A stretch of 64,000 nucleotides of DNA from an uncultured Spirochaetota bacterium (GTDB taxonomy: Bacteria > Spirochaetota > Spirochaetia > SZUA-6 > Fen-1364). Where the stretch lies: positions 416,001 through 480,000 of the forward strand of contig CAWAHW010000001.1 of NCBI GenBank assembly GCA_963781885.1, in the 5' to 3' direction. The translations under genes and the position numbers were made by a program. Of the stretch, positions 6,215 through 24,918 are shown one piece after another. Position 1 is the first letter of the stretch; the number at the start of each line of letters is the position of its first letter. The notes under the pieces are model-generated. The model did not search any database and was not told where the DNA came from. It saw nothing but the letters and a program-made list of their open reading frames with translations.

Positions 6215-6273
6215 TTCGATGTCATTGTAGCGTAGCGGGGGGCCCTCTTCAACAGGCTGGAGGCATTCTCCCG

Positions 6274-7110
6274 CTATTCGGCCGGCGGGACGTCCTGCTC
6301 TTTCGCTGCGGGAGGCGGGGGCGCGCAGGGCTCGCGAACGCGCTCGATGGAGACGGCCTTGCCTGCGTCGTCGATCTCGACGACCACCCCCTGCAGCTCC
6401 AGCATCGCCCATGCTTCCTTCGAATACTCGTGCACGAGGGTCGTCAGCTTGCGAATCTCGATCTCAGGATCCAGCCCTGCCACCGATCCGAGGCTGCCGG
6501 TCCTTCCGGCATCCGTAATGACCGCGGTGCCGCCCGCCATGACATGGTCATCGGCCGTGAGCGCCTTTGTATGCGTACCGATCACGGCGGAGACCTTGCC
6601 GTCCGCCATGGCGAACATCGTCGCTTTCTCCGCTGTGGTGACCGCGTGGAAATCGAGTATCACGCTCGTTGTCTCGGGGTGGATGGATTCCAGCAGTTTC
6701 GAAAGCAGGCTGAAGGGGTTCTTCAAGTGCACCCTCTTGAAACCGGCGATTCCCAGGAGGCTCATGACCGCGATCTTGCGGCCGTTTTTCTCGAAGATCA
6801 TGAAGCCACGACCCGGGTTGCGCGGCGGATAGTTCGCAGGTCTCACCATGTACGGGGCGTGGTTGAAGTGTTCGACGATGTCTTTCTTATAGTAGGAACA
6901 TTCGCCGGTCGTGATGGCATCGATGCCCAGCTTGTGCAGGTACACGGCGTGATTCTTGCCGATGCCGAATCCGCCGGTTGCCCCTTCTCCATCGGCCACG
7001 ACGAAGTCGATGCGTTTTTCCTGCCGGATTTTCGGGAGCAGCTCCTTCACCACCCACACCCCCGACTTTCCGACGATCTCACCGATGAAGAGGACGCGCA
7101 GGGGTGCCAT
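6274..7110 (-). CDS. ymdB: YmdB/TIGR00282-family metallophosphoesterase
   Basis: LFIGEIVG, RPANYP, DFHA..T.EK, GTHT, TDAGRTG motifs. Confidence 0.9.
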   Translation of the reverse strand: MAPLRVLFIGEIVGKSGVWVVKELLPKIRQEKRIDFVVADGEGATGGFGIGKNHAVYLHKLGIDAITTGECSYYKKDIVEHFNHAPYMVRPANYPPRNPGRGFMIFEKNGRKIAVMSLLGIAGFKRVHLKNPFSLLSKLLESIHPETTSVILDFHAVTTAEKATMFAMADGKVSAVIGTHTKALTADDHVMAGGTAVITDAGRTGSLGSVAGLDPEIEIRKLTTLVHEYSKEAWAMLELQGVVVEIDDAGKAVSIERVREPCAPPPPAAKEQDVPPAE

Positions 7111-7167
7111 CACACGAGGATAGCGGCCGGAGCCATCCTTGACAAGTTGAACCCCGGTTGCTACGGT
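7111..7167. promoter_or_regulatory. divergent promoters with overlapping -35 boxes (ymdB and tRNA-Leu)
   Basis: Plus strand: TTGACA(7139-44)-17-TACGGT with extended TG. Minus strand: TTGTCA(7145-40)-17-TATCCT-6 nt-ATG. Confidence 0.65.
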
Positions 7168-7176
7168 TTCTCCTGC

Positions 7177-7261
7177 GCCCGGATGGTGAAATTTGGTAGA
7201 CACGCTAGATTCAGGGTCTAGTGCCAGCAATGGTGTGGAGGTTCAAGTCCTCTTCCGGGCA
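7177..7261 (+). tRNA. tRNA-Leu(CAG)
   Basis: Acceptor stem GCCCGGA/TCCGGGC-A, D arm with TGGTAGA, anticodon arm CTAGA-TTCAGGG-TCTAG, long variable arm, GGTTCAAGTCC T arm. CCA not encoded. Confidence 0.97.
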
Positions 7262-7263
7262 AA
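7210..7263 (+). repeat. attL core (54 bp)
   Basis: TTCAGGGTCTAG...TTCCGGGCAAA, identical to 20935-20988. Confidence 0.95.
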
Positions 7264-7330
7264 CGTAACTTCTTAATTTCAAACAAGTTAACGGAACACC
7301 GGAAACTCCACCGGTTTACAGAAACCGGGT

Positions 7331-7351
7331 CTTTGGTTTATCCTTTGGTTT
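7331..7351 (+). promoter_or_regulatory. putative integrase arm-type sites (left)
   Basis: CTTTGGTTT twice with 12-bp period; same motif at 20794-20814. Confidence 0.7.
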
Positions 7352-7380
7352 TCAAGAGTGAGACCGAAGGAGGCCGGGTC

Positions 7381-8565
7381 ATGCCGAGACCTAAGAAGCC
7401 CTTCCAAGTTCTCCGCCGCCGAGTGAAGTCGAAATATGTCTTCTACGTCTCTTTTCGACTCACGGACGGCACCGTGACTTCGCCGCGCTCCAGTGGCCAA
7501 AGGTCGCGCGGCGCAGCCGAGACGTGGGCCGTGGAGCAGATCAACGAGGGTAGGATCCCTGTCCCGAAGGCGCAGCCCGGGAACGTCCGCGAGGAACTCG
7601 TCGCGTTCCTCACCGACTTCTGGAACTACGACAAGTCCAAGTACGTTCGGGGCAAGTTGGCCCGGGGCGGGACAATTGGAAAAGCCTACTGCCGGACCAT
7701 GGGCTACATGATCGGCAAGCACGTGAAGCCCTACTTCGAGGGCCGGAGGATTCGCACTCTCACCGCCGAGGAGTTCGACGAGTGGATGAACGACCTCGCC
7801 GCAGACGATGTACTACCAGGGCAGATCAACCTGGCGCGGACGTGCATCAACGTCGCCCTGAACCAGCTAGTGATCATGCGGCGACTCCCTTGGAATCCAC
7901 TCTCTGCGGTGAAGCCCTACAAGGAGGTGCACGGTAAGCGGGGCACCCTCAGCGTTGAAGAGTTTCGGATGCTCCTGGACCTCGACGGCCTCGACCCCCG
8001 TGTCTACGTCGCCATCGCTCTCGGTGGCCTATGCGGAATGCGCATGGGCGAGATACGCGGGCTGCGCTGGGCCGACGTGGACACGGCCGCGGAAGTGCTG
8101 CACATCCACACGAGCTACGTGGAGGTCGACGGCGAGCGCGACCAGGCCAAGCACGGGAGCAGCCGCGACGTGCCGGTCCCGTCCGCCGTGAGCGAAGCGT
8201 TGGGCGGCTGGCGGAGCGAGTCTCCGGCCATTCGGCCCGAGGACTGGGTCGTCTGCGACATAGAGCAGCCGGACAGGCCCATGCTTGCCGACCCGATCCG
8301 CGTGGCCTTTTACGAGGCGTTGGAGCGCATAGAGATCAAGAACCGCGAGGAGCGGAAGATTGTCTTCCATAGCTTGAGGCACTGGTATAACACGCAACTT
8401 CGTGGCTCGATCCCAGAGAACGTGCTCCGCCGGTTCACCGGCCACCATAGCGAGGAGATGACCGACTTGTACGACGCGGGGAAGGAGATCGACTTCCGGA
8501 AGGCGCGAGCGAGGTTGGAGGAGCTGACGAGGCCGGGGGAGGCTAAGAAGACTTCGAAGACCTGA
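7381..8565 (+). CDS. tyrosine integrase
   Basis: GMRMGEIRGLRW, FHSLRH, GHHS..MTDLY catalytic motifs; GGAGG RBS before the ATG at 7381. Confidence 0.95.
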   Translation: MPRPKKPFQVLRRRVKSKYVFYVSFRLTDGTVTSPRSSGQRSRGAAETWAVEQINEGRIPVPKAQPGNVREELVAFLTDFWNYDKSKYVRGKLARGGTIGKAYCRTMGYMIGKHVKPYFEGRRIRTLTAEEFDEWMNDLAADDVLPGQINLARTCINVALNQLVIMRRLPWNPLSAVKPYKEVHGKRGTLSVEEFRMLLDLDGLDPRVYVAIALGGLCGMRMGEIRGLRWADVDTAAEVLHIHTSYVEVDGERDQAKHGSSRDVPVPSAVSEALGGWRSESPAIRPEDWVVCDIEQPDRPMLADPIRVAFYEALERIEIKNREERKIVFHSLRHWYNTQLRGSIPENVLRRFTGHHSEEMTDLYDAGKEIDFRKARARLEELTRPGEAKKTSKT

Positions 8566-8567
8566 CC

Positions 8568-9326
8568 TTAACCCTTACTCGGGTCCAAACGCAAACGAAC
8601 GGGCTCGATAGGGTCGTCCGGGAGTCGATATGCCTTGAATACGTGTTCACGACCTGCATTCGGGTTGGTAACAAGCTTCGTGGTGAGCTTGTTCGTCCGA
8701 AGGTCAAAACTGTAAGCGATGGCAACTTCCTCAACCTCACGCCGAACAAGGACTCCTACTTCTTTGAGATCACGCTCGGCTGGCTCATCTTCTGGCAGAA
8801 TAATGCTGCGACGATGAGCGGTCCCTTCGGCAAGCGCGAACGGCGTCGGAGCTACGTACATCTTCCGATCCCTCACAAGTATGTCACCGTAGCTCCCGAA
8901 CCCACGAAAACTCTTGTTCTCGTGGACATATGCGTTGTCGGCGTTCAGAAAACTACCATGGCAGATAACGAAGTCGAGTACTGGATACCTGTTGCCGTCC
9001 GGTTCATCGGGATAGCGTCCAAACACATAGTAGACTTGTCTACCGTTGTGTTCGCCAGAAGGTACTTGACTGTTGCAGTCATAGTCAGCTTCTCGCCCTG
9101 GGTAGGCAAGCGCCTTGAGTTCATAGCCTTCTGAGAATTGAACGAGCCTAAAATCTGGATAAGTGTTCCGGCCGGGCGAGTCATACTTCAATCCGAGTTT
9201 GTCTAGTCGTTTCCGAAACCAGTTCTGGAAATGGAACTCCTTATCTCCACGGCCCTCGCGTTCGATCAACTCGCCCGCAATGATCGCTTGCGCACATACT
9301 TTGAAAATTAAGCACGCCTGGGACAC
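8568..9326 (-). CDS. putative PD-(D/E)XK restriction endonuclease
   Basis: KEFHFQ...YPDF...GYELK motif; lies directly downstream of the methyltransferase. Confidence 0.65.
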   Translation of the reverse strand: MSQACLIFKVCAQAIIAGELIEREGRGDKEFHFQNWFRKRLDKLGLKYDSPGRNTYPDFRLVQFSEGYELKALAYPGREADYDCNSQVPSGEHNGRQVYYVFGRYPDEPDGNRYPVLDFVICHGSFLNADNAYVHENKSFRGFGSYGDILVRDRKMYVAPTPFALAEGTAHRRSIILPEDEPAERDLKEVGVLVRREVEEVAIAYSFDLRTNKLTTKLVTNPNAGREHVFKAYRLPDDPIEPVRLRLDPSKG

Positions 9327-9361
9327 GAGACCCCCCGTCCATTCGATTCTTCAAGCGCAGA

Positions 9362-11629
9362 CTACCGCGCTCGCAGGGGTTCACCATACAACTTTTCAAT
9401 CGAATCTGCAATTTCAGTCTCAAAGCTGTCGAGCGTTTGCGCGGCAGTCTCGACGGACTCGCAAGCGGAGAGGTACATCAGGGTTTGTGCCATGACGACA
9501 ACGCGAACGTCGTTCCTGCTAAGCCTCCGATCTGATCGGCGAAGACGTTCTACCTGATCCGCGGCTCTTGAGACAGCCTGCTCTTGGAGGCTTTGGTCCC
9601 AACACCTAAGGTCCGTCTGCGACCGCTTTCTACACACTATGATGATGTCTATATCAATCGGCTCTTTCGCCAGATGCTTGGGCATGGCAACGGACATCTC
9701 AGACTTGATTGGATGAGCTGCAGTGATAACGAATCCTCCCTCCATGATCGCTGTGAGGACGGATCGCCAACCATCGGGTCTTGAGTGGTGGTAAGTGAAG
9801 ATCAAGACGCCATTATCCTTTAGAACACGATGACATTCCTTCCACACTGCTGTGAGTCGGCTCGTGAATATCGCGGCATCTTCGTTCTGCACCTCGCTTT
9901 CTAAGCGCGTGGAACTGTCGACCATGTGACCATTGGCACCGGAAATGTGTCGCTGCCAGACATGGAAGAAGTCGGCAAGTTGCGAGTAGTGAACATTGTC
10001 GAAAAAAGGGGGATCCGTGACTACTGCGTCGACGGATTTCTCCGCTATTTCGGTCTGGCTGGAGTCCCCGCAAGACAGATATACGCGCCCGCCTGATTCA
10101 AATGCACGGTATTCCTCTTCGATAGGAAAACCGATCTTTTCGGACAACCCGAAGACTTTCCTGCTGCCGTGCTTCTGAGCTACGCCATCCACAACTATTT
10201 CAAATGGGTTCTCCGCATATCTCATCGCTCGTCGGATTCTTCCCTCGAACAGAGTGGAAAACGAGCCCGAACTCTTGGGCGTTCCCCAGAGATTTGCCTC
10301 AAGCGGAACGCGCTCCGGCTTCAAAATGTGATGAGCAAACATGTGTCGGACAGCGCCAGTGCCTTCGCCTTTGTAGGACGCGAACATATTGTTGAACTCA
10401 AGCACGCCCGACAACAGACAAACGAACAAATCCCGCATCGCTGGCTCAGGAATTGCCCTGATTCTATCCGCCAAGATCGAGATACACAGAAGTTGCCGCG
10501 CATTGAACATTTCGTGCCAAAAGCGATAGTTGTACCCAAGGGCTTGGTTCGTATTGTACCCTGGAGCAATAGCGACTATCGGATAAGCGTCCTTCCTTTT
10601 TTTCAGTTCCTCTTCCGCCTCTGCGTACAGCAACGAGTCTTCTCCTGTAGCTTGGAGGTACATTTTCGATCCGTTTGGCATAAGAACAAGTTTGGCGAAC
10701 AAACGATGTCGCGGGACATGACCGTTGTTGCGAACCGTTCGCGCGATTTGAAAGACTCCATGACAGGAGGGACAAGTCGCTAGCTGTCCGGCCACGGGGC
10801 CATGCTGCGGATTGAATGAAACGGCGCATCTTGAGCAGGCTGCCTCTGTGGAATCGAAGTTCACCCGATTGACGGCTCCGCAGTTCGGGCAAAGTGCCTG
10901 CGCGTCGGGATATCTCCTTGGGTAAGCGTGCTGCGCAAAAACGTATGAAGAGAATAGATCAACGGAGTAAGAGCACAGTGGGCAGTCAATGGTTTTGACC
11001 CAAAAGAAGTAAAGAACATCGACTTTTTGGCCAGTTGGCAGTTTGGACTTGTAGTAGCGTCCGATCTGATCCGCCACTGCTTCTTCTATCTCGAGAAATG
11101 TCGCCGTGATTCGGGAGCTGTCGTGAATCGAGAGTGCGTTGCGCACCATGAAGAAGGAGACAGGATTGATATCTCGTCCGATCACACGCATTCCAAGCTT
11201 TAGTGCCTCAACAAGAGTAGTCCCACTACCCATGAACGGATCGAAGATGACAGCCTGTTTGGTGCTAGTTGCAGAGTAGAAAAGCTTGAGAATATCAGCG
11301 CCTTTGGGAGCGAACGTGGCAACCAAGATAGCCCTGAAGACCGTCCCGAGACGCTGCGCCCACCATTTGTGAATATGAGAAAGCGGCCGGTTGATCTCCT
11401 TACGCCAGCTCTCGATCTCTGCGATCTGACTCAATGCGTCAAATGGGAACGAGATTTCCTCAATCGCAGGAGCCTTGGGCGCAAAAGGAAGTTGCAAGAG
11501 GTCCTCGTCAGTGATCAAGTCTGGCTGTATAGGGCTTGCCAATTTGTAACCGACTCTCCTTTTATTCAAGATACAACGGGCACGAGTGTCTCTGCGCTTG
11601 AGTATCCCAGTTTCGACTATGAGGTTCAA
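9362..11629 (-). CDS. amino-DNA methyltransferase (DUF1156-like, Zn-ribbon insert)
   Basis: HKWWAQRL, motif I DPFMGSGTT, four CxxC pairs, motif IV DPPF. True start may be the TTG at 11542. Confidence 0.9.
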   Translation of the reverse strand: MNLIVETGILKRRDTRARCILNKRRVGYKLASPIQPDLITDEDLLQLPFAPKAPAIEEISFPFDALSQIAEIESWRKEINRPLSHIHKWWAQRLGTVFRAILVATFAPKGADILKLFYSATSTKQAVIFDPFMGSGTTLVEALKLGMRVIGRDINPVSFFMVRNALSIHDSSRITATFLEIEEAVADQIGRYYKSKLPTGQKVDVLYFFWVKTIDCPLCSYSVDLFSSYVFAQHAYPRRYPDAQALCPNCGAVNRVNFDSTEAACSRCAVSFNPQHGPVAGQLATCPSCHGVFQIARTVRNNGHVPRHRLFAKLVLMPNGSKMYLQATGEDSLLYAEAEEELKKRKDAYPIVAIAPGYNTNQALGYNYRFWHEMFNARQLLCISILADRIRAIPEPAMRDLFVCLLSGVLEFNNMFASYKGEGTGAVRHMFAHHILKPERVPLEANLWGTPKSSGSFSTLFEGRIRRAMRYAENPFEIVVDGVAQKHGSRKVFGLSEKIGFPIEEEYRAFESGGRVYLSCGDSSQTEIAEKSVDAVVTDPPFFDNVHYSQLADFFHVWQRHISGANGHMVDSSTRLESEVQNEDAAIFTSRLTAVWKECHRVLKDNGVLIFTYHHSRPDGWRSVLTAIMEGGFVITAAHPIKSEMSVAMPKHLAKEPIDIDIIIVCRKRSQTDLRCWDQSLQEQAVSRAADQVERLRRSDRRLSRNDVRVVVMAQTLMYLSACESVETAAQTLDSFETEIADSIEKLYGEPLRAR

Positions 11630-11782
11630 TCGCGACTGTCGTCACCTGATTGAAGGGCTCCGCTACTCGAAGCTTCTCTCGAAGCCGTAGGTGTTGACGA
11701 TCAACTCATATGCCTGGTTGAACGTCCGCCCGCACTCCCGTGTTGTCAGTAGCTCGTCGAGGGTCTTCTGTTGTTCAAGTGA

Positions 11783-12184
11783 TCATTCCGGATTTGCATT
11801 CGTGTCTTTCTGCAATGCCGGCCTGACTATAAGGAATGCATAGACCAACTGCATGTCCAGGTTTGCCTTGTCTGCATAAAATGTATCAATGGCCTTGATC
11901 ATCTTCGTGAGACTGATCTTGAAGCCTAAGAAGTTATTCCAGAATTCCTTCTCGCGCGTGGTCTCGTGATCTCGGGCTATTTCATTGGAGCTAAACATCT
12001 CAGCATAAGCAAGTTCAGCTCCTATGACATAGCACGCTTTTTCTTCCTTGCTCCAATTCAACCACTCTGAACCCGCGAAATCTCCGCCATCGTCCATCCA
12101 ACGAAGAGCAGAAATGCTGCTTTGAGCAAATCCCATTATTCCCACAAACAGAAAGAAGACAATAAGCCGACACCTTCTCTTCAT
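11783..12184 (-). CDS. secreted hypothetical protein
   Basis: AAGGAGG RBS; signal peptide MKRRCRLIVFFLFVGIMGFA. Confidence 0.75.
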   Translation of the reverse strand: MKRRCRLIVFFLFVGIMGFAQSSISALRWMDDGGDFAGSEWLNWSKEEKACYVIGAELAYAEMFSSNEIARDHETTREKEFWNNFLGFKISLTKMIKAIDTFYADKANLDMQLVYAFLIVRPALQKDTNANPE

Positions 12185-12279
12185 TTCGCTTCCTCCTTTC
12201 CTCGCACTCATTTCGTATCGTCAATTAGACAATCTGATTATACAGCCCTTTGCCGATAATGCCTATGACCCTTTTTCGC

Positions 12280-12303
12280 TAAGCTGTAAACGGGTACAGC
12301 TTA
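12280..12303. promoter_or_regulatory. operator-like inverted repeat overlapping the XRE start codon
   Basis: TAAGCTGTA-aacggg-TACAGCTTA. Confidence 0.55.
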
Positions 12304-12653
12304 TGGTTGATAAGAAACGGGCACGAAAACCGGCCAGGATCCAGGAGCTACTCGCCCGGAACATCAAAGAGGCGAGGGGCCGCTTGAAGTTGACTCAAGA
12401 GATGCTAGCCGAGAGGACCGGCCTCACCACCTCGTTCATTGGGGAGGTGGAAATTTGCAGGAAGTACCCTCGTCCGCAGACACTTCAGAAGGTTGCGGAC
12501 GCCCTTGGGCTTAAGCCGTACCAGCTATTCGTGGAAACGGAATCGAGCAAGGAACTTGAGAAGCACAAGCTTTTGGCAAGAATCCTTTTGGAGCTGAAGG
12601 GCAACATCAACCGGGAACTCGAGGCGACTTTGATGAGGCACGGCAGAGGATGA
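12303..12653 (+). CDS. XRE-family HTH regulator
   Basis: NIKEARGRLKLTQEMLAERTGLTTSFIGEVE...LQKVADALG. Confidence 0.9.
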   Translation: MVDKKRARKPARIQELLARNIKEARGRLKLTQEMLAERTGLTTSFIGEVEICRKYPRPQTLQKVADALGLKPYQLFVETESSKELEKHKLLARILLELKGNINRELEATLMRHGRG

Positions 12654-12699
12654 TCTCCTTCTGCGGCATCTCTTGATGATGAGCGCAGTGTAAGTCCTA

Positions 12700-13053
12700 C
12701 TATCGTCTCTCCCGTGGGCCGGGGAGGTAGCTCAGGATGACTCGCTCGATTTCGGAATCCATGGCCGTCCGCAGTTTCGAGAGAATCTCAGTAAGAAGAT
12801 CATACCTGTCAGAGGACTTGTCCGCACCGTCCAAGAAGAGCTGGTGGGGCTTCACTCGAAGTTCTCTGGCAATCTTCGCCAGCGACGCGGCGCTAACCCA
12901 CCTGCGGCAAGCCTCGATATCGTTCATGTGTCCGGCGGAGATGTCCGCGCGCTTTGCCAACTCCATTTGGCTGATCCCGAGCTTTTTTCGAGACTCCTTG
13001 ATGTTCTTGGCGACGAGTCTCTGGATTTCCTTTGCGGTCTGCGGATTCTCCAT
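12700..13053 (-). CDS. XRE-family HTH regulator (paralogue of the preceding gene)
   Basis: NIKESRKKLGISQMELAKRADISAGHMNDIE...KPHQLF. Confidence 0.9.
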   Translation of the reverse strand: MENPQTAKEIQRLVAKNIKESRKKLGISQMELAKRADISAGHMNDIEACRRWVSAASLAKIARELRVKPHQLFLDGADKSSDRYDLLTEILSKLRTAMDSEIERVILSYLPGPRERR

Positions 13054-13093
13054 GAGAATCCACTCTTCGTCGAAAGCTACAGTATGCCTACTT

Positions 13094-13129
13094 GCTTAGG
13101 ACGAATTGAGGATGTAGCTTAGGACGAAT
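13094..13129 (+). repeat. 13-bp direct repeat in a divergent promoter region
   Basis: GCTTAGGACGAAT at 13094 and 13117. Confidence 0.8.
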
Positions 13130-13155
13130 CACGCCAACCCGCAGGGGAGGGCCCA

Positions 13156-13830
13156 ATGGCCACGGACTCTGACTCGCTCGCGAACGCCCGGGAACTGTCG
13201 CAGCTGCTCGTCTCCAAGGCAAACGATATTCGAGGAAAGCTCGAAAACAAGGAAATCGAGAAATACTTGTTCCTGATGGATCGGTTCAAGAATTCGAACG
13301 GTCGCATCAGTCGTGACGAGGAATTCCAACGCCGCTACGGCGTCTTCTATGGCCTCTACGCGGCGCGTCTCTCCGATGATTTCAGGTCCGAGTACTTCAA
13401 GCTCATGGAGGAGTTTTCGCATAGTGCGGAAGTCGACCTGGCGGGAATCTGCAGCAAACTGAAAGAGCAGAGCGGAGGGAAGCTGCAATTCTCCTTTTGC
13501 ACGAAGATGGCCGCCACTCTGGACCCCGACTACCCCATCTATGATGTCTGCGTTGCCGAGGTATTCAGCTTTGATCCGCCGCTACCTACGAAGCAGTATG
13601 AGGAACGGGTCCAGCGCTACCTGACCTTCTACGACCACCTCCAATCAACCATCAAGGCGCTTTCCTCACGACGAGAGATTGCTCGAATGAACCCTGCGCT
13701 ACGCAGCAAGTTTCCGCAGTGGGACAACTTGTCAAGCACGAAGCAACTTGACTTTCTGATTTGGACGGCTGGCAAGCTCCGGCAGGAGGAGAAACGGCAA
13801 GAGATACGCCGCGAGGCCGGTTCGCAATGA
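13156..13830 (+). CDS. hypothetical protein, HhH DNA-glycosylase-like
   Basis: GGGAGG RBS; SFCTKMAATLDPDYPIYD and LDFLIW motifs. The CDS is likely real; the function is inferred. Confidence 0.6.
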   Translation: MATDSDSLANARELSQLLVSKANDIRGKLENKEIEKYLFLMDRFKNSNGRISRDEEFQRRYGVFYGLYAARLSDDFRSEYFKLMEEFSHSAEVDLAGICSKLKEQSGGKLQFSFCTKMAATLDPDYPIYDVCVAEVFSFDPPLPTKQYEERVQRYLTFYDHLQSTIKALSSRREIARMNPALRSKFPQWDNLSSTKQLDFLIWTAGKLRQEEKRQEIRREAGSQ

Positions 13831-14146
13831 CTGACTTCTCCTGGACCTCATGCGGAACATCCCAAAGACCCTCCTCAACGCGGCCCTCCGCCTCTCGCGC
13901 CTCCACTCTTTCTTGAAGTCTACCGGCCTGCCACGCCTGTTGACGATCACCTCGTTCCCCATCGCCTGGCACTCGGGGCAGGAGCAAGCGGGATCGTGCT
14001 CCTCGCCGTCTGACTTGAGGGGAACGCCGCGCTCATCCACGAATTCCTTACCCGTGCGCCAGCCAGCAGTCCAGGCAGTTGCATCCGGGGCCGTGGTCGC
14101 CGTTGTCGTCCCCGTCGAGTCTCACGAAGCGCTTCTCTCTCCTCAT
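13732..14146 (-). CDS. small protein with two HxPxCxCxxC knuckles, frameshifted near 14051
   Basis: ATG overlaps the recombinase stop (ATGA). HGPGCNCLDC and HDPACSCPEC join in frame if GGG is read as GG. Confidence 0.6.
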
Positions 14147-15201
14147 TCCATCCCGAGCCCCTGCAAGTATACCTGCGTTACGTTCAGCGACGCGTGCCCG
14201 AGCGCCCGCTGCACGGCCAGCACGTCGCGTGTCCGCCTGTACAGGTTCGCGGCGTACCTGTGGCGCAGGTCGTGCGCCGTGTAGGCGTGGCGGACGCGGC
14301 CTTGCTTGCGGAGCGCCGCCCCGAGTCTGGCGATGGCTGCACCGGTGCTCTGTAAGTTCCAGCCCGCGAACGGCCGCTTGTGGCCGCCCCTGAACCGCTT
14401 CAGCAGCTCGTCGGGCAGAGCCAACACCCTCGTCCCCCCGCCCTTCACTTTGAAGCTCGCCTTGTCCCCGTCCTCAAGCTTCATGCTCAACGCGTCGCCA
14501 AGGCGAAGCCCCGTCTCGCCGAGCAGTCGGACGAGCGGAAGCAGCCGCCTCGCGCTCTCCTTCATCCTCCGCGGCCCGACCGTCACCGCCTTGATCCTCT
14601 TCCTATTTGAAAGCTCGCGCAACATCTCCGCATACTCCCGGTCGCTCATCACCGGCACGGTGAGCTCATCGCTGTCCGGCTTCGGGCGGTGCTTGAACTC
14701 ATGCTGGGGGAGGGCGAGTCCCACCCACGGGTTAGTCTGCACCACCTCCGTCACCTCCAGGTACTTCCAGAACGCCGACACCGCCGCGAGGACGAGGCGC
14801 TGGGAGTTGGCCTTGAGCTTCCCTTCCCTGTGCTTGGCGGGCCTCTCCTCCAGCCACTTGCGGAACCTGTTGGCGTCCGCCCGGCCCATCTGGAGCAGCG
14901 GCAAGCCCATCATGTCCACGTACGCGAAGAGCTTGGACAACGCCAGACGGTACGCCGCCTGAGTGCGCGGCCCACGGTTCCCGTCGATCAGGAAGTCCTC
15001 CACGGCCTTCCGCCTGTTGAACTTCGCCGCCTTCACCGTCTCCGACAGCGCACCCTTCACCTTGTCCCTTCGCAAGTCCTTCAGCGCCTCGATGACCTCG
15101 TCCTTCGAGGGACTACGCTCCAGGACTGCGATCACCTCGTCAATGGCGATGGTCTCCCCGCCGTGGTCACTCCTCAACTCGATCTCGATCCACTCTTTCA
15201 T
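14143..15201 (-). CDS. second tyrosine recombinase (XerC/D- or resolvase-like)
   Basis: TGLRLGD, KVKGG, HDLRH, LGHASLNVTQVY motifs. Confidence 0.92.
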   Translation of the reverse strand: MKEWIEIELRSDHGGETIAIDEVIAVLERSPSKDEVIEALKDLRRDKVKGALSETVKAAKFNRRKAVEDFLIDGNRGPRTQAAYRLALSKLFAYVDMMGLPLLQMGRADANRFRKWLEERPAKHREGKLKANSQRLVLAAVSAFWKYLEVTEVVQTNPWVGLALPQHEFKHRPKPDSDELTVPVMSDREYAEMLRELSNRKRIKAVTVGPRRMKESARRLLPLVRLLGETGLRLGDALSMKLEDGDKASFKVKGGGTRVLALPDELLKRFRGGHKRPFAGWNLQSTGAAIARLGAALRKQGRVRHAYTAHDLRHRYAANLYRRTRDVLAVQRALGHASLNVTQVYLQGLGME

Positions 15202-15368
15202 ACAAATAATCTTAATTTATTTTATAGATAAAATCAACCCCTCACTCTTGACCACATTTCTCGGTAAACCCCCTCTTTCGCCCTTCAAGAGAATTACGTT
15301 GCTTCCGGCCAGCGAGCACCGTATTATAAGCCCCAATCCATAGGAGACATCCGACAAGGAGGAGAGCA

Positions 15369-16421
15369 ATGCTTTTCCGACTTGATGCAAAGAACCTTAG
15401 TCCAGTCGCTTTCAAAGATATCGGGACGATAGGCGGGGTAGAAAAGGACTTGGAGAACATATTGGCCGACAATATGCTTCCGACCCTCTTCGAGGATAAC
15501 CCCTATATGGTGATCTTTCAGGAAAGGGCATATCAAGCGGAACCAGACATAATTGCACTCGATCGTGCAGGCAATCTTGTGCTGATCGAAATAAAGCGAA
15601 GCTATGTGGCAGCAAATGCGCTTGAGCAGGTATTTCGATACGCGCACACCCTCTATAGGTGGAACTACGAAATCCTCCAGTCGAAGTACAACCAGTATCT
15701 TGAAGCTTTGGGGCAACCTACAATCACCTCCCTCCGCGAATGCCACAGAGAAGTGTTCGGCCTTGACTCCGCTGTCGACGAACGAGACTTTAATGGGAAT
15801 CAGAAGCTCATCATAGTTGGCAATAGCACGGACGAGGCTCTAATCAGCTATGTGGACTACTGGCGTTCGCGTGGAATCGACATCGACTTCATTCCGTATC
15901 GTATCTATGAAATAGAACACCAGCTATTCCTCGAATTCTTCGCAAAACCATACGATCTGCACTCCAACCCGTCCGATCTCAAGGGGGTCATCTTCGACTC
16001 CAATCGAAGCTACGACCCCAAAGCTTTGGAGCATATGCTGAAGAACAACAGAGTGTCAGCATTTGGTGACCGGCAGGATGCCGTATCTTGCCTCCGGCCG
16101 AACGACTTTGTGTTTCTCTCCCATAAGTTCGTTGGCGTAGTCGCTGCTGCTCAAGTAAAAAGCAGAGTGAAGAACGCTGAGACCGAAGACGGGGATGAGG
16201 AATGCTACGTTGAGGTCAAATACTTGACACCAGCAGCCGACCCAATCGACGACACCATGCCGCGAATTTCATATTCCGAAATCTACGAAGAGATTGGAAA
16301 AACCTTCTTTCATGCCCGAATCGACAAGCGACCGTTTTTGACCAAGGAGGAATCTGAGAAGCTGGTGGCGTTTATGATCAAGCGATTCGCAAGCAGAAAG
16401 AAGTCGCGCGCCCCGTCCTGA
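15369..16421 (+). CDS. NucS-like PD-(D/E)XK nuclease with a C-terminal EVE/PUA-like domain
   Basis: EKDLE...PDIIALD...LIEIKR...Q..RY; C-terminal DFVFLSHKFVGVVAAAQV; GGAGG RBS. Confidence 0.75.
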   Translation: MLFRLDAKNLSPVAFKDIGTIGGVEKDLENILADNMLPTLFEDNPYMVIFQERAYQAEPDIIALDRAGNLVLIEIKRSYVAANALEQVFRYAHTLYRWNYEILQSKYNQYLEALGQPTITSLRECHREVFGLDSAVDERDFNGNQKLIIVGNSTDEALISYVDYWRSRGIDIDFIPYRIYEIEHQLFLEFFAKPYDLHSNPSDLKGVIFDSNRSYDPKALEHMLKNNRVSAFGDRQDAVSCLRPNDFVFLSHKFVGVVAAAQVKSRVKNAETEDGDEECYVEVKYLTPAADPIDDTMPRISYSEIYEEIGKTFFHARIDKRPFLTKEESEKLVAFMIKRFASRKKSRAPS

Positions 16422-16541
16422 TCTATACCCGTGCGACGTAGCACGTGGTTGAAGCTGACACTTTATGAGGACTTGACTACGTTGTCATGCCCACTCACAG
16501 GCGCCCTGGCGAAAGGTCACCTCGTCGCGGATTTCGCAAGC

Positions 16542-16766
16542 TCACTTCTCCGTCTTCTGAGGTGTTGTCGGCGTTTTCGCCGGAGTCGAGCCACCGGTTT
16601 GGCTCTGACTGCTTGTCCCTGAAGCTGGCTGCGGTGGTGTGGCTCTCGGTGCCTGTTTCTGCTCCCCTGGCGGCAGGGGGCGCTGCTCTGGTGCGGCAAG
16701 TCTTGGAGCTTGGTCTCCTAGCGCCACCCGCTTCGATGTCTCTACAACCTTCTTCTTGTCGTTCAT
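16542..16766 (-). CDS. small Pro/Gln/Thr-rich disordered protein
   Basis: GGGAGG RBS and ATGA overlap with the upstream gene. Confidence 0.5.
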   Translation of the reverse strand: MNDKKKVVETSKRVALGDQAPRLAAPEQRPLPPGEQKQAPRATPPQPASGTSSQSQTGGSTPAKTPTTPQKTEK

Positions 16767-17335
16767 GCAAAGTCCCTCCCTAAGCTTTCCATCTCGTGGA
16801 TCGTTGACAGATTCCAGCCAATTCCAGCCTTTTTTGTCGGATTGTTCACATACGAGTATACGGCCACGGTACGAACCGCGATCTCGAAGACAAAATCAAA
16901 GGCAAAGTCCTGTGTCTCTCCGGGCTCAATCTCAACGTTCTTGGTCTCGACGATCCGATTGGAGACTCCTCGAACACCAGGCCATTGGTAGTGTCCTTGA
17001 CCGGCCTCCAGCATTTTCTGTTCGTCGAGGATGGCTTCCGGCCACGGGTTCATCTGGTAGAGCCAGGTATCAACTTCGTCCAGGCCGACCAGGACTTGAC
17101 CTTGGTTCTCAATTGTCAACGTGACCCTGAGAAATCGGTGTTGGCTGTCTATTGTCGAAGTGTAAATAGAATGAGCCAGTCTAATTCTTGGGAATTCCTC
17201 CCTCTTCTTAAAAACCGTTCGCCGGGACCAGATTGCTCCGACAATCAGGGCACCAACCGTTGTCAACGTCAGTAGCAAGTCCGCGTATGGCTTGACCTCC
17301 GTTATCCATGCCGACAACTTTCGGGTCCCTTTCAC
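16763..17335 (-). CDS. membrane-anchored hypothetical protein with a beta-sandwich domain
   Basis: N-terminal TM helix; VTLTIENQG and IEPGE motifs. Confidence 0.7.
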   Translation of the reverse strand: MKGTRKLSAWITEVKPYADLLLTLTTVGALIVGAIWSRRTVFKKREEFPRIRLAHSIYTSTIDSQHRFLRVTLTIENQGQVLVGLDEVDTWLYQMNPWPEAILDEQKMLEAGQGHYQWPGVRGVSNRIVETKNVEIEPGETQDFAFDFVFEIAVRTVAVYSYVNNPTKKAGIGWNLSTIHEMESLGRDFA

Positions 17336-17551
17336 TCTCGCTCTTGATCGATTCTACCTACACCTTCTTGGGTTGTAAACACCTTACCGTAGTCAGCCCC
17401 GGTCCCTCAATCTCCTCCCCCCTCGCCCTTCTCCAACACCGTCTTCATCACCACTGCGCCCTACCCCTCATCCAGAAAATGCCCTAGATTATGTGGATGT
17501 GGCTTTTCGCGTATTTTCTCCACCTGTAACGTTCACTCGCCTAGATCCGGC

Positions 17552-17944
17552 TCAAGGTGGGCGTCGATTGAGAAACTTCTCGATGTTTCTTTTATGTTTT
17601 TCATATATACGCTTGGCGCCCTCTTCGAAGCCGAACCTTGTCGATAGCTGAATCATATGCTCATCTGCAATTCGCTCCGCCGCGACTCTGTTGGTAGGTA
17701 GCATTCCAGGTTTCCAATTGACGACATGCCCAAGTTCATGGGCTACGACTATCGGCCAGTTTTCGTCGTCCGTATCGGTGCAGTACTCTTCGCTTATCCA
17801 TATCACAGTGGGATCGCTCGGGTTCCAGCACCCTTCGGCTTCTTTTTCGGTTCCCTCGAAACGGCGGCATTTGATCTCAAGAACACCGTATTCTTTTGCA
17901 AGGCGGTTCACTTCATTCTTGAATGCGGGCAAGCCTTTCTTCAT
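17552..17944 (-). CDS. ImmA/IrrE-like zinc metallopeptidase
   Basis: VAHELGH followed by ERIAD. Confidence 0.75.
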   Translation of the reverse strand: MKKGLPAFKNEVNRLAKEYGVLEIKCRRFEGTEKEAEGCWNPSDPTVIWISEEYCTDTDDENWPIVVAHELGHVVNWKPGMLPTNRVAAERIADEHMIQLSTRFGFEEGAKRIYEKHKRNIEKFLNRRPP

Positions 17945-18639
17945 GCTAGATCACAGTGGGCTCAATCGTGCGCCGACTGTCAACCTCCTCGGACTCCTGT
18001 TCCCTCGCGCCTCTTTCTTGGCCTTCTTCAACTGCCCTCAACGCATCTGGGAGCGCGACGAGCCCCACGGCCCAGCCTCAAGATTGCCTTATACGCCTCC
18101 CTGCTGGGCGCGCATCGCGGTCTATGATGGTAGCCCCTATGATTCCCCATCTCTCGCTTAATCCTCCCAATGAGCCCGGTTGTCGCGGGCACCGTCTTTG
18201 CTTTGGGTCGTGAGGTCGGTCACATGGACCGCCTCACCTTTGTCCTGCTCTCCTTGCTCCACCTTTTTTCTCATGCACCACGCCACACCTCAATTCCTCC
18301 ACAGCTTTACTGTCCGTCTCTTTCTCCTACTGCCTTGATAGATCCTCCCCTAGATGCCTCTTCCACAGCAAACGATCCGGTGCCACCTGCGCGCGCCGCG
18401 AACTTGGAGTGGAGAAAGTCGCATAGAGAATGATCCAAGAGGGGAAGAAAAAAGAGCTGTTCTGACGTAGTGCAGCCGCCGTCCATCCGGACACGAGCAG
18501 ATGGGAGCGCTTGGCCCTGTGCCCGAACGCCTCCGCCTACTCCAGGTTCCACTGGGGGGTTCGTAGTGAAACCCCTGGTAACACTCTCTTACGTATCCCC
18601 TTCGCGCGCGCTCACGCGCTTCGTGCTGGTCGCTTCATG

Positions 18640-18830
18640 CGCATTACTCCTTCCCAGGGTACTCCTGGAAGAGGAGAGCGAAGCGAGCACAGGGAGGCGG
18701 AGACCCGGAGAGCGCTCCGGGTCTCTACTACTTCTTTACTAAGAAGTAGTCTTCATATCACGATATTACATATGTAGGTGTACGCGGGGGTTTGACTACC
18801 TACCGGTCCGTAGTCAAACCTACCTACCCT
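18640..18830. other. hairpin cluster, putative replication or transfer origin
   Basis: Perfect stems at 18700-18725 (11 bp), 18727-18750 (10 bp) and 18789-18820 (11 bp), palindrome TACATATGTA and CTACCTACC repeats, directly downstream of the rep-like gene. Confidence 0.5.
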
Positions 18831-18853
18831 TGTGTGGAGTGAACACGAATGAG

Positions 18854-19474
18854 TCAAGGTGCCTCCACGGGCTCTTTCAGCACCTCCATCACCTTCTGGT
18901 CGAGCGCGTAGACGGTCCAACGCCCGGGGGAATTGAATTCCGCCGGATGCGGCCTCGCATCGCCCCTGGTGATGTCGATGGGGTGCGAGAAGAGCACACC
19001 GGCCTTGACGAGATTCCGGAGCCGCTGGTACATCCATTCCTTGCTGGCGATGTTCAGCAAGGGTAGTGCTCGGACAGTGGCCTGAAGGGACATCCAGTAG
19101 TAGGTTCGCCCCTCGATCTTGACAGCGCACTCCTCGAACTCCGGGCTGGAGAAGGCCTTGGCGAGGTAGGCCAGCAGCTCCCCGTCCGTGAGGTCCAGAC
19201 CGAGCGCACGCAGCACGGCCTGTCTGTACAGGCCGGTCGTCATGCGCCAGACGTAGAAGTGCCCCGCCGCCTTCGCCTCTCTCTCGGTGTCTGCGCCGCG
19301 CCGGCGGAGCGCCTGGTACCACTGAGCCCTCCCAACTTCGGCCTTAGGAGGAAGGAGAAGGTCCGGTTTCCGGGCGGTGATGGTCTTCTGAAAGTGCTTC
19401 TGCGCTTCTTCGTGGTTCTCCTTCTCTTGCTGCGCATCCCACTCATCGCGTCCCTTATAGTCAATTTTGCGCAT
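18854..19474 (-). CDS. winged-helix replication-initiator-like protein
   Basis: LDLTDGELLAYL...YYWMS..LPLL.I....YQRLRNLVKAGVL resembles phage replication-protein N-terminal wHTH domains. Confidence 0.55.
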   Translation of the reverse strand: MRKIDYKGRDEWDAQQEKENHEEAQKHFQKTITARKPDLLLPPKAEVGRAQWYQALRRRGADTEREAKAAGHFYVWRMTTGLYRQAVLRALGLDLTDGELLAYLAKAFSSPEFEECAVKIEGRTYYWMSLQATVRALPLLNIASKEWMYQRLRNLVKAGVLFSHPIDITRGDARPHPAEFNSPGRWTVYALDQKVMEVLKEPVEAP

Positions 19475-19554
19475 ATATTCGCTCTGTTCTTTTCCTCACT
19501 CTTGTTGCGAAGCGGCGTTTCCCATTCAGCAAACCTAATGCCGCTTCCCCACGG

Positions 19555-19998
19555 CTATTCGTACTTGTCCGGTTTCCCAGCCTCGTCTTCTATCGTCTTC
19601 TGACGAGCCCGCTCGCGGCGCCGCTCTTTTTCCTTCAGAAGCTCCCGAGCGTCACGAGCGTACCGCTTGATTTTCTTGGCGTGACTCCCCTTGCTCAGTG
19701 CGCGGTCCTTTGGCTTCTCCGTCCCGGACTTCATCAGAGCCTTGCCGTGCGACTTGTCGTCTTGACTCTTGCCCTCCGACTTGTTTCCCGGGCCCTGGCC
19801 TGTGCTGTCACCGATGGACTCGATTCGCCGCTCGGCGATCCAGGACTTCAACTCTTCACGGCTTAACATGATATGGTTGCGGCTGATTCGGACAAACGGG
19901 ATGAGCTTCTTGCTAGTCCACTGGTACAGCGTCGTACGCTCAATACCGAGCATCTTCGCAGCTTCTGCGGTATCAATGAGTTCGCTCTCACCTTTCAT
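19555..19998 (-). CDS. excisionase-like HTH (HTH_17/AlpA-like) with a charged tail
   Basis: LIDTAEAAKMLGIERTTLYQW...IPFVRI; GAGGTG RBS. Confidence 0.85.
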   Translation of the reverse strand: MKGESELIDTAEAAKMLGIERTTLYQWTSKKLIPFVRISRNHIMLSREELKSWIAERRIESIGDSTGQGPGNKSEGKSQDDKSHGKALMKSGTEKPKDRALSKGSHAKKIKRYARDARELLKEKERRRERARQKTIEDEAGKPDKYE

Positions 19999-20230
19999 CT
20001 CCGCACCTCTTTGACTGGGACCGAGTGGCCCGTCGCGTTGGACGGATGTCTTCTGTTGAAAAGGAGAATACAACGTTCTTTCTCGCTGGTCCAGAATTGC
20101 ATAGCAGGCCGCTTGTCGCCGGCTTGGGCTCGACACTCATCCAAGCGTGCGTTTCGTCGTCCTCGCCTAAAGGGCAACACTTGACCCCCCAAGCCTCGGG
20201 CTTTATGGTTGAACACGGAGGGGATCAAGA

Positions 20231-20709
20231 ATGAGTGATCCGATCACGACTGGGCTGACCGCCCTGCAAGCTGCCGTCGGCGCAATGAGATTCATTTTGG
20301 AGTCGAAAAGTGCGTTCGTGAAGGCGGAGTATCAAGCAAAGATGGCGGAAGCCTACGGTGCCTTGGTCGATGCGCAGACCAAGTTGGTAGAAGCGAAGAC
20401 TCTTCTGATGCAGAAGGACGAGGAAATCAGGAAGAGAGACGAGATTATTCGGACCCTGACTGAGCAGAAGAACACCTCCGAGCAGATGGTCTTTGAGGAC
20501 GTTATTACTTCAAGATCGCCGACGGCCGCAAAGATGGTCCTTTCTGCGCCTCATGCTGGGACGACAAGCGCAAGGCGATCAGGCTCAATGGCCACAACAA
20601 CGGGGCGTGGACCTGTCCCGTTTGCAGCAACCAAGTCGCTGACAAGAGCTGGTACCAGGGTGGTAGGGACGAGCCCATTGAGCCGTTCTGGACAGACAGG
20701 CACCGCTGA
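20231..20709 (+). CDS. coiled-coil plus Zn-ribbon protein, frameshifted near 20497
   Basis: The alternative frame after EQMVFE reads GRYYFK...GPFCASCWDDKRKAIRL...WTCPVC and stops at 20709. Confidence 0.65.
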
Positions 20710-20793
20710 TCGAGGCACAGCGGGAAGAACTGCTCAGATTTGTTCCAGGACAGCATGGGATGTTTCAGTCGTGCAGTTCTACGGGCTTTCGGT

Positions 20794-20814
20794 CTTTGGT
20801 TTACTCTTTGGTTT
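20794..20814 (+). promoter_or_regulatory. putative integrase arm-type sites (right)
   Basis: CTTTGGTTT twice with 12-bp period. Confidence 0.7.
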
Positions 20815-20934
20815 ATTCCGCAGAGACCGGTGCAGACCGGCAGACCCAGACATAGACTGAGACCGCTTTGAAATGCTTGCTGCATATGCCTATAGTGAGC
20901 CTCACCTAGACCGGCGAAAAGGCCATGAGGTACC

Positions 20935-20988
20935 TTCAGGGTCTAGTGCCAGCAATGGTGTGGAGGTTCAAGTCCTCTTCCGGGCAAA
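20935..20988 (+). repeat. attR core (54 bp)
   Basis: Identical to 7210-7263. Confidence 0.95.
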
Positions 20989-21602
20989 GTTCTACTAGGC
21001 CATCGAGAAGTACAGCTATTTCTGCTTTTCTCTCAAGGATAATCGAAATGACTCTCGGGGTAGCGCGGAGGGTACTAAAAACGCTCGATGTACCCTTATG
21101 CTGAATAACATGGGAACCTTCGAACTCGCACATGGGGTCAGGTTCAAAGAACTTCCGAAACGCGTCGACCGTACTGATGAAGTTGCTCGCCGTCTTTTGA
21201 GAGGCTCGCCAATAACTTCCTCCGACCTTCAATGAGGATGTGTCCTCTGATCGTCTCTTGCCATAGATAAGCCCATCAACGAGCAGAGTAACCGTGTGCC
21301 GAGCATGGTCGGGTGCGCGATCGTAAGCTCTCCATGCGAGTCGTCGTCCCCGCATCTGTCTTATGCGTCGGGATGCAAACAAAGAAGTTTGGCAACAGCC
21401 CCTCAATGTGCCAAGCGGGATTTCGGTCCAGGGCGCGAGGCGCACTTGGAACAGCAGCGATCGCGTTCATGCTGCCCAGTCCTCCGGGGCACAAATTCGC
21501 CGAAACCTTAGAACGGCGTGGCGGCCGTCGAAAGTAAGGCATCGGTCATGTCCTTGAAGACAATCGGGTGAGTGAGATGAGCTCCTCGAGAAGATCCGCG
21601 CG

Positions 21603-22247: not shown

Positions 22248-22309
22248 GAAATTCCTCTCCCTTATTCACCTATAATAATCAGTCCCACTCCGAGTTATTT
22301 TCCAAAACA

Positions 22310-24732: not shown

Positions 24733-24918
24733 TTCAGGGTCAGTGCCAGAAATGGTGTGGGGGTTCAAGCCCTCTTCCGGGCAAACTTAGTTCCTTAATT
24801 TGAAATGAGTTAAAGAGATACCCGAAATCTCACCGGTTTACAGTCCCCGGGTCTTTGGTTTTTTTTTTGGTTTTCAAGAGTGAAACCCAAGGAGGCTGGG
24901 TCATGCCGAGACCGAAGA
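24733..24918 (+). mobile_element. decayed third att site with integrase leader and 5' stub
   Basis: Degenerate copy of 7210-7398: tRNA 3' half, arm repeats, GGAGG RBS and ATGCCGAGACC start, then truncated. Confidence 0.85.

Follow-up and report, generated by a model that had tools for sequence, protein, structure and literature searches.

A putative Int/Xis-driven defence island at a tRNA-Leu gene of an uncultured spirochaete

Boundaries and recombination genes of the island

A tRNA-Leu(CAG) gene in the genome of an uncultured Spirochaetota bacterium (GenBank assembly GCA_963781885.1, contig CAWAHW010000001.1) is followed by a putative integrative island that carries two tyrosine recombinases and candidate defence genes. 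We analysed this island within a window of 64,000 nt (positions 416,001 to 480,000 of the contig), which is the whole stretch of DNA examined and the one to which all positions refer, and we followed up a preliminary description of the same stretch. The tRNA gene is the only one found by ARAGORN in the window, and the Rfam family RF00005 agrees with this call at 49.9 bits; scanning positions 6000-23000 against Rfam revealed nothing besides it. The 3' part of the tRNA gene recurs at the far end of the island as a perfect direct repeat, in which 54/54 nt are identical. The repeat starts in the anticodon loop, 2 nt ahead of the anticodon (tRNA position 36, at 7212), and ends 2 nt beyond the tRNA gene. 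Duplication of the 3' part of a tRNA gene as a direct repeat is a classical sign of integration at that site, and the two copies are referred to here as the attL and attR cores (Table 1).

Each core is accompanied by a pair of short repeats. The 9-nt word CTTTGGTTT occurs twice on the island side of each core, at 7331 and 7343 and at 20794 and 20806, with the two copies 12 nt apart; the distance inward from the core is about 70 nt at attL and about 120 nt at attR. The 64-kb window includes five copies of this word, compared to 0.33 expected, and five copies were reached in none of 100 shuffled sequences. The pair is kept ahead of the integrase gene in three related genomes (G041, G042 and G043 in our numbering), and in G043 a pair was also found at the right end, about 150 nt ahead of the attR core. 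These pairs look like candidate arm-type integrase sites on both sides of a would-be attP.

Fourteen main open reading frames (ORFs) of the island were scanned against Pfam, PADLOC, PHROGs and NCBIfam, of which only PADLOC supplied defence profiles. The integrase gene starts about 118 nt past attL. Within its somewhat longer ORF the true start is likely the ATG at 7381, which has the sequence AAGGAGG ahead of it, because the stretch upstream of this codon is the conserved arm region and because a decayed copy elsewhere keeps exactly that start. At the opposite end of the island lies a gene for an excisionase/AlpA-type helix-turn-helix (HTH) protein, Xis. Its start is likely methionine 47, at 19998, which would give a protein of 147 amino acids (aa) and fits the 146-aa homolog found beside attR in G043. 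This protein is a candidate recombination directionality factor (RDF), a call made at the domain level only. A second, Xer-like tyrosine recombinase is encoded in the interior of the island. Among IMG/VR contigs no relative of it was found, and its matches in phage records are integrases at 23-31% identity only. The genes for the integrase, Xis and the second recombinase are all full-length. An invertible segment (shufflon) around the second recombinase was considered and dropped, since only short and imperfect inverted-repeat pairs were found.

No capsid, terminase, relaxase or type IV secretion system (T4SS) gene was identified among the 14 main ORFs in any of the four profile collections. 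A further 107 island ORFs of at least 40 aa gave no Pfam match at E ≤ 0.001, and families of primases, helicases and Rep proteins are absent from the 14 and the 107 ORFs together. The perfect att cores that begin at the anticodon loop, the intact integrase, the xis-like gene, the two recombinases and the lack of capsid, terminase, relaxase and T4SS genes, all of which the preliminary description had reported, were thus seen again here. The same description had left room for a deletion remnant of a known prophage or integrative and conjugative element (ICE). At the DNA level the backbone region (12217-20200) has 0 matches among 50,697 phage records, and the only plasmid match is a 130-nt patch, inside the gene of the 350-aa protein described below, in two plasmids. 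Nothing in these comparisons therefore marks the island as left over from a known phage or plasmid.

The GC content of the island is 0.553, compared to 0.631 for the genome. The region of low GC covers the window between about 4 kb and about 46 kb and also includes a fragment of an IS3-type transposase (HTH_21) at 31962-32663. Six further genomes of the genus have copies (75-88% identity) of a stretch of about 95 nt just to the right of attR (21242-21337), which is present in a single copy in the genome of the window and has no Rfam match.

Table 1 Features of the island and of its surroundings in the 64-kb window
Feature	Position	Strand	Evidence or remarks
tRNA-Leu(CAG), putative integration target; 3' part probably rebuilt from the core of the element	7177..7261	+	ARAGORN, Rfam
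attL core, 54 nt	7210..7263	+	100% identical copy ahead of related integrase in G041
Arm-type repeat pair (CTTTGGTTT x2), candidate integrase arm sites, P' side of attP	7328..7351	+	Repeat search, word counts
Tyrosine integrase	7381..8565 (ORF opens 7333)	+	PF00589 6e-17, phrog_1 2e-44
252-aa candidate restriction endonuclease (PD...ExK)	8568..9326	-	Conserved motif, gene pairing
755-aa predicted DNA amino-methyltransferase (N6_N4_Mtase)	9362..11629	-	PF01555 1e-17; phrog_10183 8e-109; PADLOC MTase_II/HmaB-like
142-aa ORF, N-terminal hydrophobic signal-like segment	11783..12211	-	GC 0.457, lowest of island
XRE-type HTH regulator, 116 aa, backbone	12303..12653	+	HTH_3 2e-10; 88-92% in G041, 88% in G042
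XRE-type HTH regulator, 117 aa, paralog of the 116-aa XRE, divergent from orf224	12700..13053	-	HTH_3 5e-8; 96% in G041
orf224, 224-aa backbone ORF	13156..13830	+	No family; 87-92% in G041
Small Cys-rich ORF (GCNCLDC...CSCPEC), just downstream of second recombinase	13860..14139 (approximate)	-	Six-frame comparison with G006, G041, G042
Second, Xer-like tyrosine recombinase, 352 aa, internal backbone gene	14143..15201	-	PF00589 2e-13
350-aa NucS-like PD-(D/E)xK nuclease with EVE/YTH-like reader, PDC-S11/Madara family (predicted)	15369..16421	+	PADLOC, fold model
190-aa ORF, one N-terminal hydrophobic helix, backbone partner of second recombinase	16763..17335	-	No family; 88% in G041, 87% in G006
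130-aa HExxH metallopeptidase-like ORF	17552..17944	-	phrog_87 metallo-protease 4e-6; PF18894 under cutoff
Three consecutive palindromes downstream of orf206	18700-18726, 18727-18752, 18789-18820		Read from sequence
orf206, 206 aa, earlier 'rep-like'	18854..19474	-	No family match
Excisionase/AlpA-type HTH protein (Xis)	19555..20136	-	HTH_17 4e-13; TIGR01764 40.7 bits (cutoff 28.8)
209-aa ORF, doubtful as annotated	20231..20860	+	Coiled N-terminus, low-complexity tail overlapping arm repeats
Arm-type repeat pair (CTTTGGTTT x2), attR side	20791..20814	+	Repeat search, word counts
attR core, 54 nt	20935..20988	+	Perfect repeat of attL core
Third att core and left-end remnant of a related element, outside island	24733..24918	+	Repeat and homology comparison

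Related islands, their defence cargo and reuse of the tRNA-Leu site

Searching for the integrase returned 14 loci, among which close relatives were found in four Spirochaetota metagenome-assembled genomes (MAGs). The relative in G041 is 86% identical; that in G042 (82%) has the same ymdB-tRNA-Leu synteny, that in G043 (67%) adjoins a tRNA-Leu gene, and G044 includes a C-terminal fragment (77%). In three of these MAGs the close relative occupies the tRNA or att core that is used here. The second recombinase is 92% identical in G041, 84% in G042 and 74% in G043. Within the order, at E ≤ 1e-40, it was found in 4 of 20 other genomes of the genus (92, 84, 81 and 50%, the last two in G006 and G019) and in none of 71 genomes outside the genus. 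In two genomes a single contig encodes both recombinases, and G042 and G043 likewise have both types.

Comparison of the island DNA with G041 revealed four conserved blocks separated by unrelated DNA: the core and integrase (7210-8534, 88%), the two XRE genes and orf224 (12217-14160, 90%), the second recombinase (14132-15241, 91%) and the region of the 190-aa ORF (16544-17166, 96%). The DNA between the blocks encodes different defence candidates in different relatives. Behind the integrase, G041 carries an LmuB-like SMC ATPase (PADLOC 5e-26), which is Lamassu-like, while G042 carries at this position HEPN_AbiU2 and an ankyrin protein (PDC-M72A 5e-62). In G006 a PDC-M49A protein (4e-295) is encoded beyond the 3' end of the second recombinase. 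The right arm of G043 is minimal and includes the second recombinase, one ORF, Xis, the arm repeats and the att core. The same layout recurs in G019 at a tRNA-Pro site, where the integrase (27%) and the second recombinase (50%) are divergent. A further element is probably represented by a 10,704-nt ENA contig that is listed for one relative each of orf206 and orf224.

The family backbone would thus consist of the integrase, the two XRE genes with orf224, the Cys-rich ORF with the Xer-like recombinase, the membrane-anchored 190-aa ORF and Xis, and at least three slots between these blocks would hold differing defence genes in different species. Such islands apparently make up an undescribed, narrow family within a single genus of uncultivated Spirochaetota and combine a conserved backbone with exchangeable defence genes; a topical, non-exhaustive search of the open-access literature found no description of it. 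The preliminary description had proposed a possibly undescribed family of helper-dependent defence elements in spirochaetes. The relatives in related spirochaete MAGs, with the same backbone and differing cargo, uphold the family, while no support was found for helper dependence or a satellite lifestyle.

Both XRE genes match the PADLOC profile 'Control_protein' and were considered as controllers of the restriction-modification (R-M) pair of the window. They are kept in G041, where the R-M pair is absent, and are therefore backbone regulators. In G041, 69 nt of the integrase 3' end are present a second time, next to about 1 kb of additional DNA. Capture of cassettes at this end of the gene by site-specific recombination was considered for the duplication, but recombination between related elements accounts for it more simply. 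Large ankyrin-repeat proteins are encoded beside these integrases in three genomes (window 25654-27264; locus L007, 11042-12337; locus L036, 5838-8168 and 11242-12735), and one of them matches the PADLOC candidate PDC-M72A (5e-62).

The cargo behind the integrase in the window is a gene pair for a candidate nuclease and a methyltransferase (MTase). For the 252-aa protein, an alignment of 20 sequences demonstrated that P57, D58, E69 and K71 are invariant and form a PD...ExK motif. It has 4224 homologs at E ≤ 0.001. The 120 best of them share 73-80% identity with it although they belong to unrelated phyla, and none of them has a name. A homolog is also encoded in four plasmid records. On all three plasmids inspected, of the four found, the gene of this homolog overlaps the start of an MTase gene whose product is 40-46% identical to that of the window. 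The 755-aa MTase itself includes FxGxG near residue 130 and DPPF near residue 530, with a Cys-rich insert between them; the sequence reads FDPFMGSG and TDPPFF, which we take to be the AdoMet and DPPF/Y motifs of a DNA amino-methyltransferase. The two proteins constitute an R-M-like pair of type II that is predicted to cut unmodified DNA. The apparent R-M system of the preliminary description is thus supported by the MTase adjoining a PD...ExK nuclease candidate and by the pairing on the plasmids.

A second cargo gene, between the second recombinase and the 190-aa ORF, encodes a 350-aa protein that matches the PADLOC family PDC-S11 (PDLC04916, 1.1e-17) over its nuclease half only (residues 25-189). 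The protein has 654 representative relatives, and an alignment of 47 sequences yielded a fold model with a pLDDT of 92.8. Residues 20-189 of the model superimpose on the nuclease domain of NucS/EndoMS (2vld; Z 10.1, root-mean-square deviation (rmsd) 2.7 over 107 residues, the match spanning residues 24-188). Residues 199-344 superimpose on EVE/YTH folds, with PH1033 as a match (1wmm; Z 11.9, rmsd 2.8 over 119 residues, spanning residues 204-337) together with YTHDF2 (Z 10.8) and the EVE domain of the modification-dependent enzyme VcaM4I (Z 10.0). In the alignment D60 is invariant and E74 and K76 are near-invariant. On sequence and model, the protein is predicted to be a type IV, modification-dependent restriction enzyme that would cut hypermodified DNA. 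Fusions of EVE domains with PD-(D/E)xK nucleases are described as predicted type IV enzymes (PMC7641849, PMC6765204). The preliminary description had named two candidates that could target modified DNA; this protein is one of them, of the PDC-S11/Madara type, and the second was not substantiated.

Madara, the PDC-S11 protein of E. coli ECOR34, is described in a preprint as restricting T4 with glucosylated hydroxymethylcytosine, not unmodified T4, and as complementing BREX (bioRxiv 10.64898/2026.09.05.749240). As in the Madara described there, the 350-aa protein combines an N-terminal NucS-like PD-(D/E)xK nuclease with a C-terminal EVE-like fold, and its invariant Asp, D60, is at the place of the D63 that was mutated in the preprint. 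Like Madara beside BREX, it accompanies a system that would target unmodified DNA. Differences from Madara are that the PADLOC match is limited to the nuclease half and that, in the model, the reader domain here is nearest to PH1033-type EVE and to YTH (Z 10-12). Together the R-M pair and the NucS-EVE nuclease would cover phages with and without base modification, and the island would add a second case, phylogenetically distant from the first, of a Madara-type reader-nuclease that accompanies a system against unmodified DNA.

The tRNA-Leu site has been used repeatedly. A third, decayed att core (92.6% identical) is present at 24733-24785, 3.7 kb downstream of attR. It is followed at 24794-24918 by 125 nt that are homologous to the left end of the island and include an arm repeat, the ribosome-binding site and the first five integrase codons, while the rest of the integrase is gone. 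The 3.7 kb between the second and third cores encode a metallo-beta-lactamase (MBL)-fold hydrolase, a major facilitator superfamily (MFS) transporter and a MarR regulator. In G041 a 24-kb element (C2:15400-41000) lies between tRNA-Leu and the window-type element, forming a tandem array; it encodes an integrase at 34% identity, a 691-aa primase-helicase, ParA/ParB, a methyltransferase-like gene and an HTH-metalloprotease fusion, and no capsid genes. Twenty ymdB-tRNA-Leu loci of the genus were compared: an integrase homolog (27-82%) lies directly downstream in 9, no integrase was found across at least 1.4 kb downstream in 5, and 6 end at the tRNA. The tRNA-Leu site is an accretion hotspot. Accretion of this kind is described for tycheposon islands and for cis-mobilisable elements (CIMEs) and ICEs (bioRxiv 10.1101/2020.12.28.424599; PMC5704250).

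Mobility of the island and its place among known elements

We consider it probable that positions 7264-20988 (the element with the attR copy of the core, 13.7 kb) constitute an Int/Xis-driven, site-specific integrative defence island that belongs to a narrow, undescribed family. This reading is built on four observations, namely the att repeats, the domains encoded, a conserved backbone whose cargo varies, and repeated use of the site. The tyrosine integrase would have inserted a circular form into the 3' part of tRNA-Leu(CAG); in the process, the core of the element would have restored the tRNA, and the core that it displaced would have become attR. For excision, the excisionase-type HTH protein encoded at the far end would be required besides the integrase, and the paired 9-nt arm sites flanking the core would fit an attP of the lambda type. 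The element may be competent for excision at present, and its enzymes may be active.

Several observations weigh against this reading. No clean empty site was found in the 20 genomes of the genus; the right flank is conserved only in G009, the nearest case, where its genes are 4-7 kb from the tRNA and inverted, with another integrase between. orf206 was not found in G041-G044. Near the second recombinase of G006 a window-type integrase was not found, and the att end there has no arm sites; one half of the backbone may thus sometimes move without the other. In comparison with G041 and G006, similarity is higher for the element than for its flank, but this does not hold for G042, and vertical descent with loss could therefore still have contributed. 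All relatives are MAG contigs, several of which break inside the element. The small Cys-rich ORF is frame-broken in the window, by decay or assembly error; it is also broken in G006 and is intact in G042. The one public sequencing run that shares words with the island (share 0.08) yielded 19 short contigs at a depth of about 2-4, and no joints, a result with no bearing on excision either way.

An integrative and mobilisable element (IME) that is excised by Int/Xis and then transferred by a co-resident conjugative element, through an unrecognised origin of transfer (oriT) such as the palindromes at 18700-18820, would also combine an integrase and an RDF-type gene with the absence of transfer genes, and IMEs that carry only an oriT are described in a review (PMC5704250). 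The three palindromes adjoin orf206, and the host genome encodes a VirB4-like ATPase above the Pfam cutoff (an 823-aa ORF on contig 4), which is a possible helper only. However, no relaxase, coupling protein or accessory mobilisation family was found in the island, the PF03432 relaxase, the sole relaxase family tried, has no match in the genome, an oriT is not recognisable without a known helper, and the palindromes may be mere terminators; we regard such an IME as unlikely. A phage satellite, induced by a helper, packaged in hijacked capsids and interfering with the helper, appears very unlikely. The size of 13.7 kb, the integrase at one end, the AlpA/MerR-type HTH protein, the XRE regulators, the lack of structural genes and the defence cargo do resemble the satellite layout as outlined in PMC10085698, and orf206 has atlas look-alikes (score 0.92) among small hypothetical proteins carried by phages, which is a lead only. 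Yet by the SatelliteFinder definitions given there the island has only two of five core components of phage-inducible chromosomal islands (PICIs), the integrase and, in the HTH_17 match of the Xis protein, an alpA/merR/stl-type regulator, and two of seven P4 components, again the integrase and the AlpA-type HTH protein (PMC10085698). Homologs of primase-replicase, terS, capsid-morphogenesis genes, psu, sid, delta and ash were not found among the island ORFs; the only terS row is phrog_57 on the Xis protein, at E 0.0056 and with no significant stretch. Neither orf206 nor the second recombinase has relatives in IMG/VR or phage records, apart from the integrase matches at 23-31%. Terminase_6N, TerL_ATPase, Phage_capsid and Phage_portal have no match in the 92.6%-complete host genome, and therefore no resident helper is visible.

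The island could also be a composite in decay, in which the integrase and XRE side was fused or nested with the second-recombinase and Xis side and is now fixed and immobile, its cargo differences arising by homologous recombination and deletion. The site does accrete elements, as the third core with its remnant and the tandem array of G041 demonstrate, and G041 retains, next to additional DNA, a second copy of part of the integrase 3' end. The att core next to the second-recombinase module of G006 has no arm sites, no window-type integrase was found there within 6 kb of the contig end, and frame breaks affect several backbone genes of the relatives. Against this origin, which we judge distinctly unlikely, the 54-nt cores are still identical, the integrase, Xis and the second recombinase are full-length, both recombinases share one contig in two genomes and both types occur in G042 and G043, the divergent pair of G019 has the same layout at tRNA-Pro, and no internal att-like repeat was found between the halves. 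As for the second recombinase itself, our guess is that it could act in resolution or maintenance of the excised circle, or be a leftover of element fusion. A bolder and quite improbable proposal is that this recombinase, the small Cys-rich ORF and the membrane-anchored ORF form a second functional recombination engine, which would load or swap defence cassettes at its own gene ends or mobilise a sub-element. Hints in this direction are the variable DNA that abuts both ends of the recombinase gene in three species, a 3.2-kb insert within the last codons of the gene in G041, and the recurrence of the divergent integrase and second recombinase pair at the tRNA-Pro site. If true, the island would be a two-recombinase 'defence platform', distinct from islands with a single integrase.

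Taken as an integrative defence island, the element has its closest organisational match in cargo-carrying tycheposons together with integrase-linked defence hotspots. The tycheposons of Prochlorococcus and other marine bacteria are described as having an inward-facing tyrosine recombinase at the tRNA-proximal end, a partial-tRNA att duplication, a size of about 10-20 kb and few hallmark genes with variable cargo, and with each new integration the older elements are displaced outward, and partial tRNA copies and remnants stay behind (bioRxiv 10.1101/2020.12.28.424599); all of these are shared by the island. The definition given in that preprint includes a lineage-specific integrase, a shared hallmark set and usually a replication module (primase, helicase, polymerase), while no replication gene was found in the island. 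Also unlike the tycheposons described there, the island carries defence rather than nutrient-uptake cargo, has a conserved second internal recombinase and has as its host a spirochaete of freshwater or soil. Integrase-bearing elements at tRNA genes, whose backbone flanks interchangeable defence genes, are likewise described for the P4/P2 hotspots (PMC9122126), E. coli defence islands (PMC10121019) and pipolins (PMC11551731). Unlike the P4, P2 and pipolin backbones outlined in these papers, the scanned ORFs match none of the hallmarks primase alpha, psu, sid, delta and family-B DNA polymerase, and orf206 and orf224 each have fewer than ten relatives in 5.8 billion proteins (five and four, respectively). 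With the relaxase-less IMEs, mobilisable genomic islands (MGIs) mobilised by SXT/IncA/C, the island shares Int and RDF, the lack of conjugation proteins and tandem accretion at one att; MGIs are reported to have an oriT related to that of the helper and excision under helper control, neither of which is recognisable here (PMC5704250).

A tRNA-targeting Int/Xis defence island is a well-known kind of element, and nothing in the analysis overturns current ideas; what is apparently undescribed is the family. It documents integrative defence islands in an environmental spirochaete lineage whose mobile elements are barely described, and literature searches on Rectinema with integrase, and on spirochaete genomic islands with tyrosine recombinases and defence, found nothing relevant. 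The slots of the family are places to mine the unannotated neighbours of known defence genes, and several of the backbone genes, having almost no relatives, are candidates for functions not yet known in excision control or maintenance.

Remaining open reading frames and neighbouring features

The preliminary description had called orf206 'rep-like', a label that found no support here. No match was found in Pfam, PADLOC, PHROGs, NCBIfam, PDB sequences, phage records or IMG/VR, and a fold model built from six sequences reached a pLDDT of 53 and is unusable. A single match, at 32%, was obtained in JGI metagenome contigs. Weak domain matches occur in 4 of 400 other Spirochaetota genomes, inside ORFs of 323-411 aa that have no Pfam family. 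HTH_24 is present in 14% of one cluster of its atlas look-alikes, again a lead only. Searches of PDB sequences with the 252-aa protein, orf224 and orf206 gave nothing usable.

The ImmA-like call of the preliminary description is weak: the 130-aa ORF includes HExxH and matches a PHROGs metallo-protease family, but its PF18894 match is under the cutoff and no Peptidase_M78 match was found at E ≤ 0.01. An ImmA/IrrE protein would be expected as a Peptidase_M78 protein beside its cognate XRE regulator, and the XRE genes lie about 4.5 kb away from this ORF. The palindromes downstream of orf206 are candidates for a terminator, an operator or an origin-like structure. They are located in a gene-poor stretch of 0.9 kb between the HExxH ORF and orf206, and a 130-nt patch at 18058-18188 is 72% conserved in G006.

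Frame breaks at single positions were observed in conserved small backbone genes of the window (13860-14139), of locus L025 (7087-7436 and 5935-6604) and of locus L034 (18040-18500). They lie at differing places in each MAG and look more like long-read assembly errors than shared pseudogenisation; several of the relatives are long-read MAGs by title. Elsewhere in the host genome, the VirB4-like (CagE_TrbE_VirB) ATPase (G000:C4:783227-783868) lies about 70 kb from a paralog of the integrase (C4:713101-714048), and this region may be a conjugative element.

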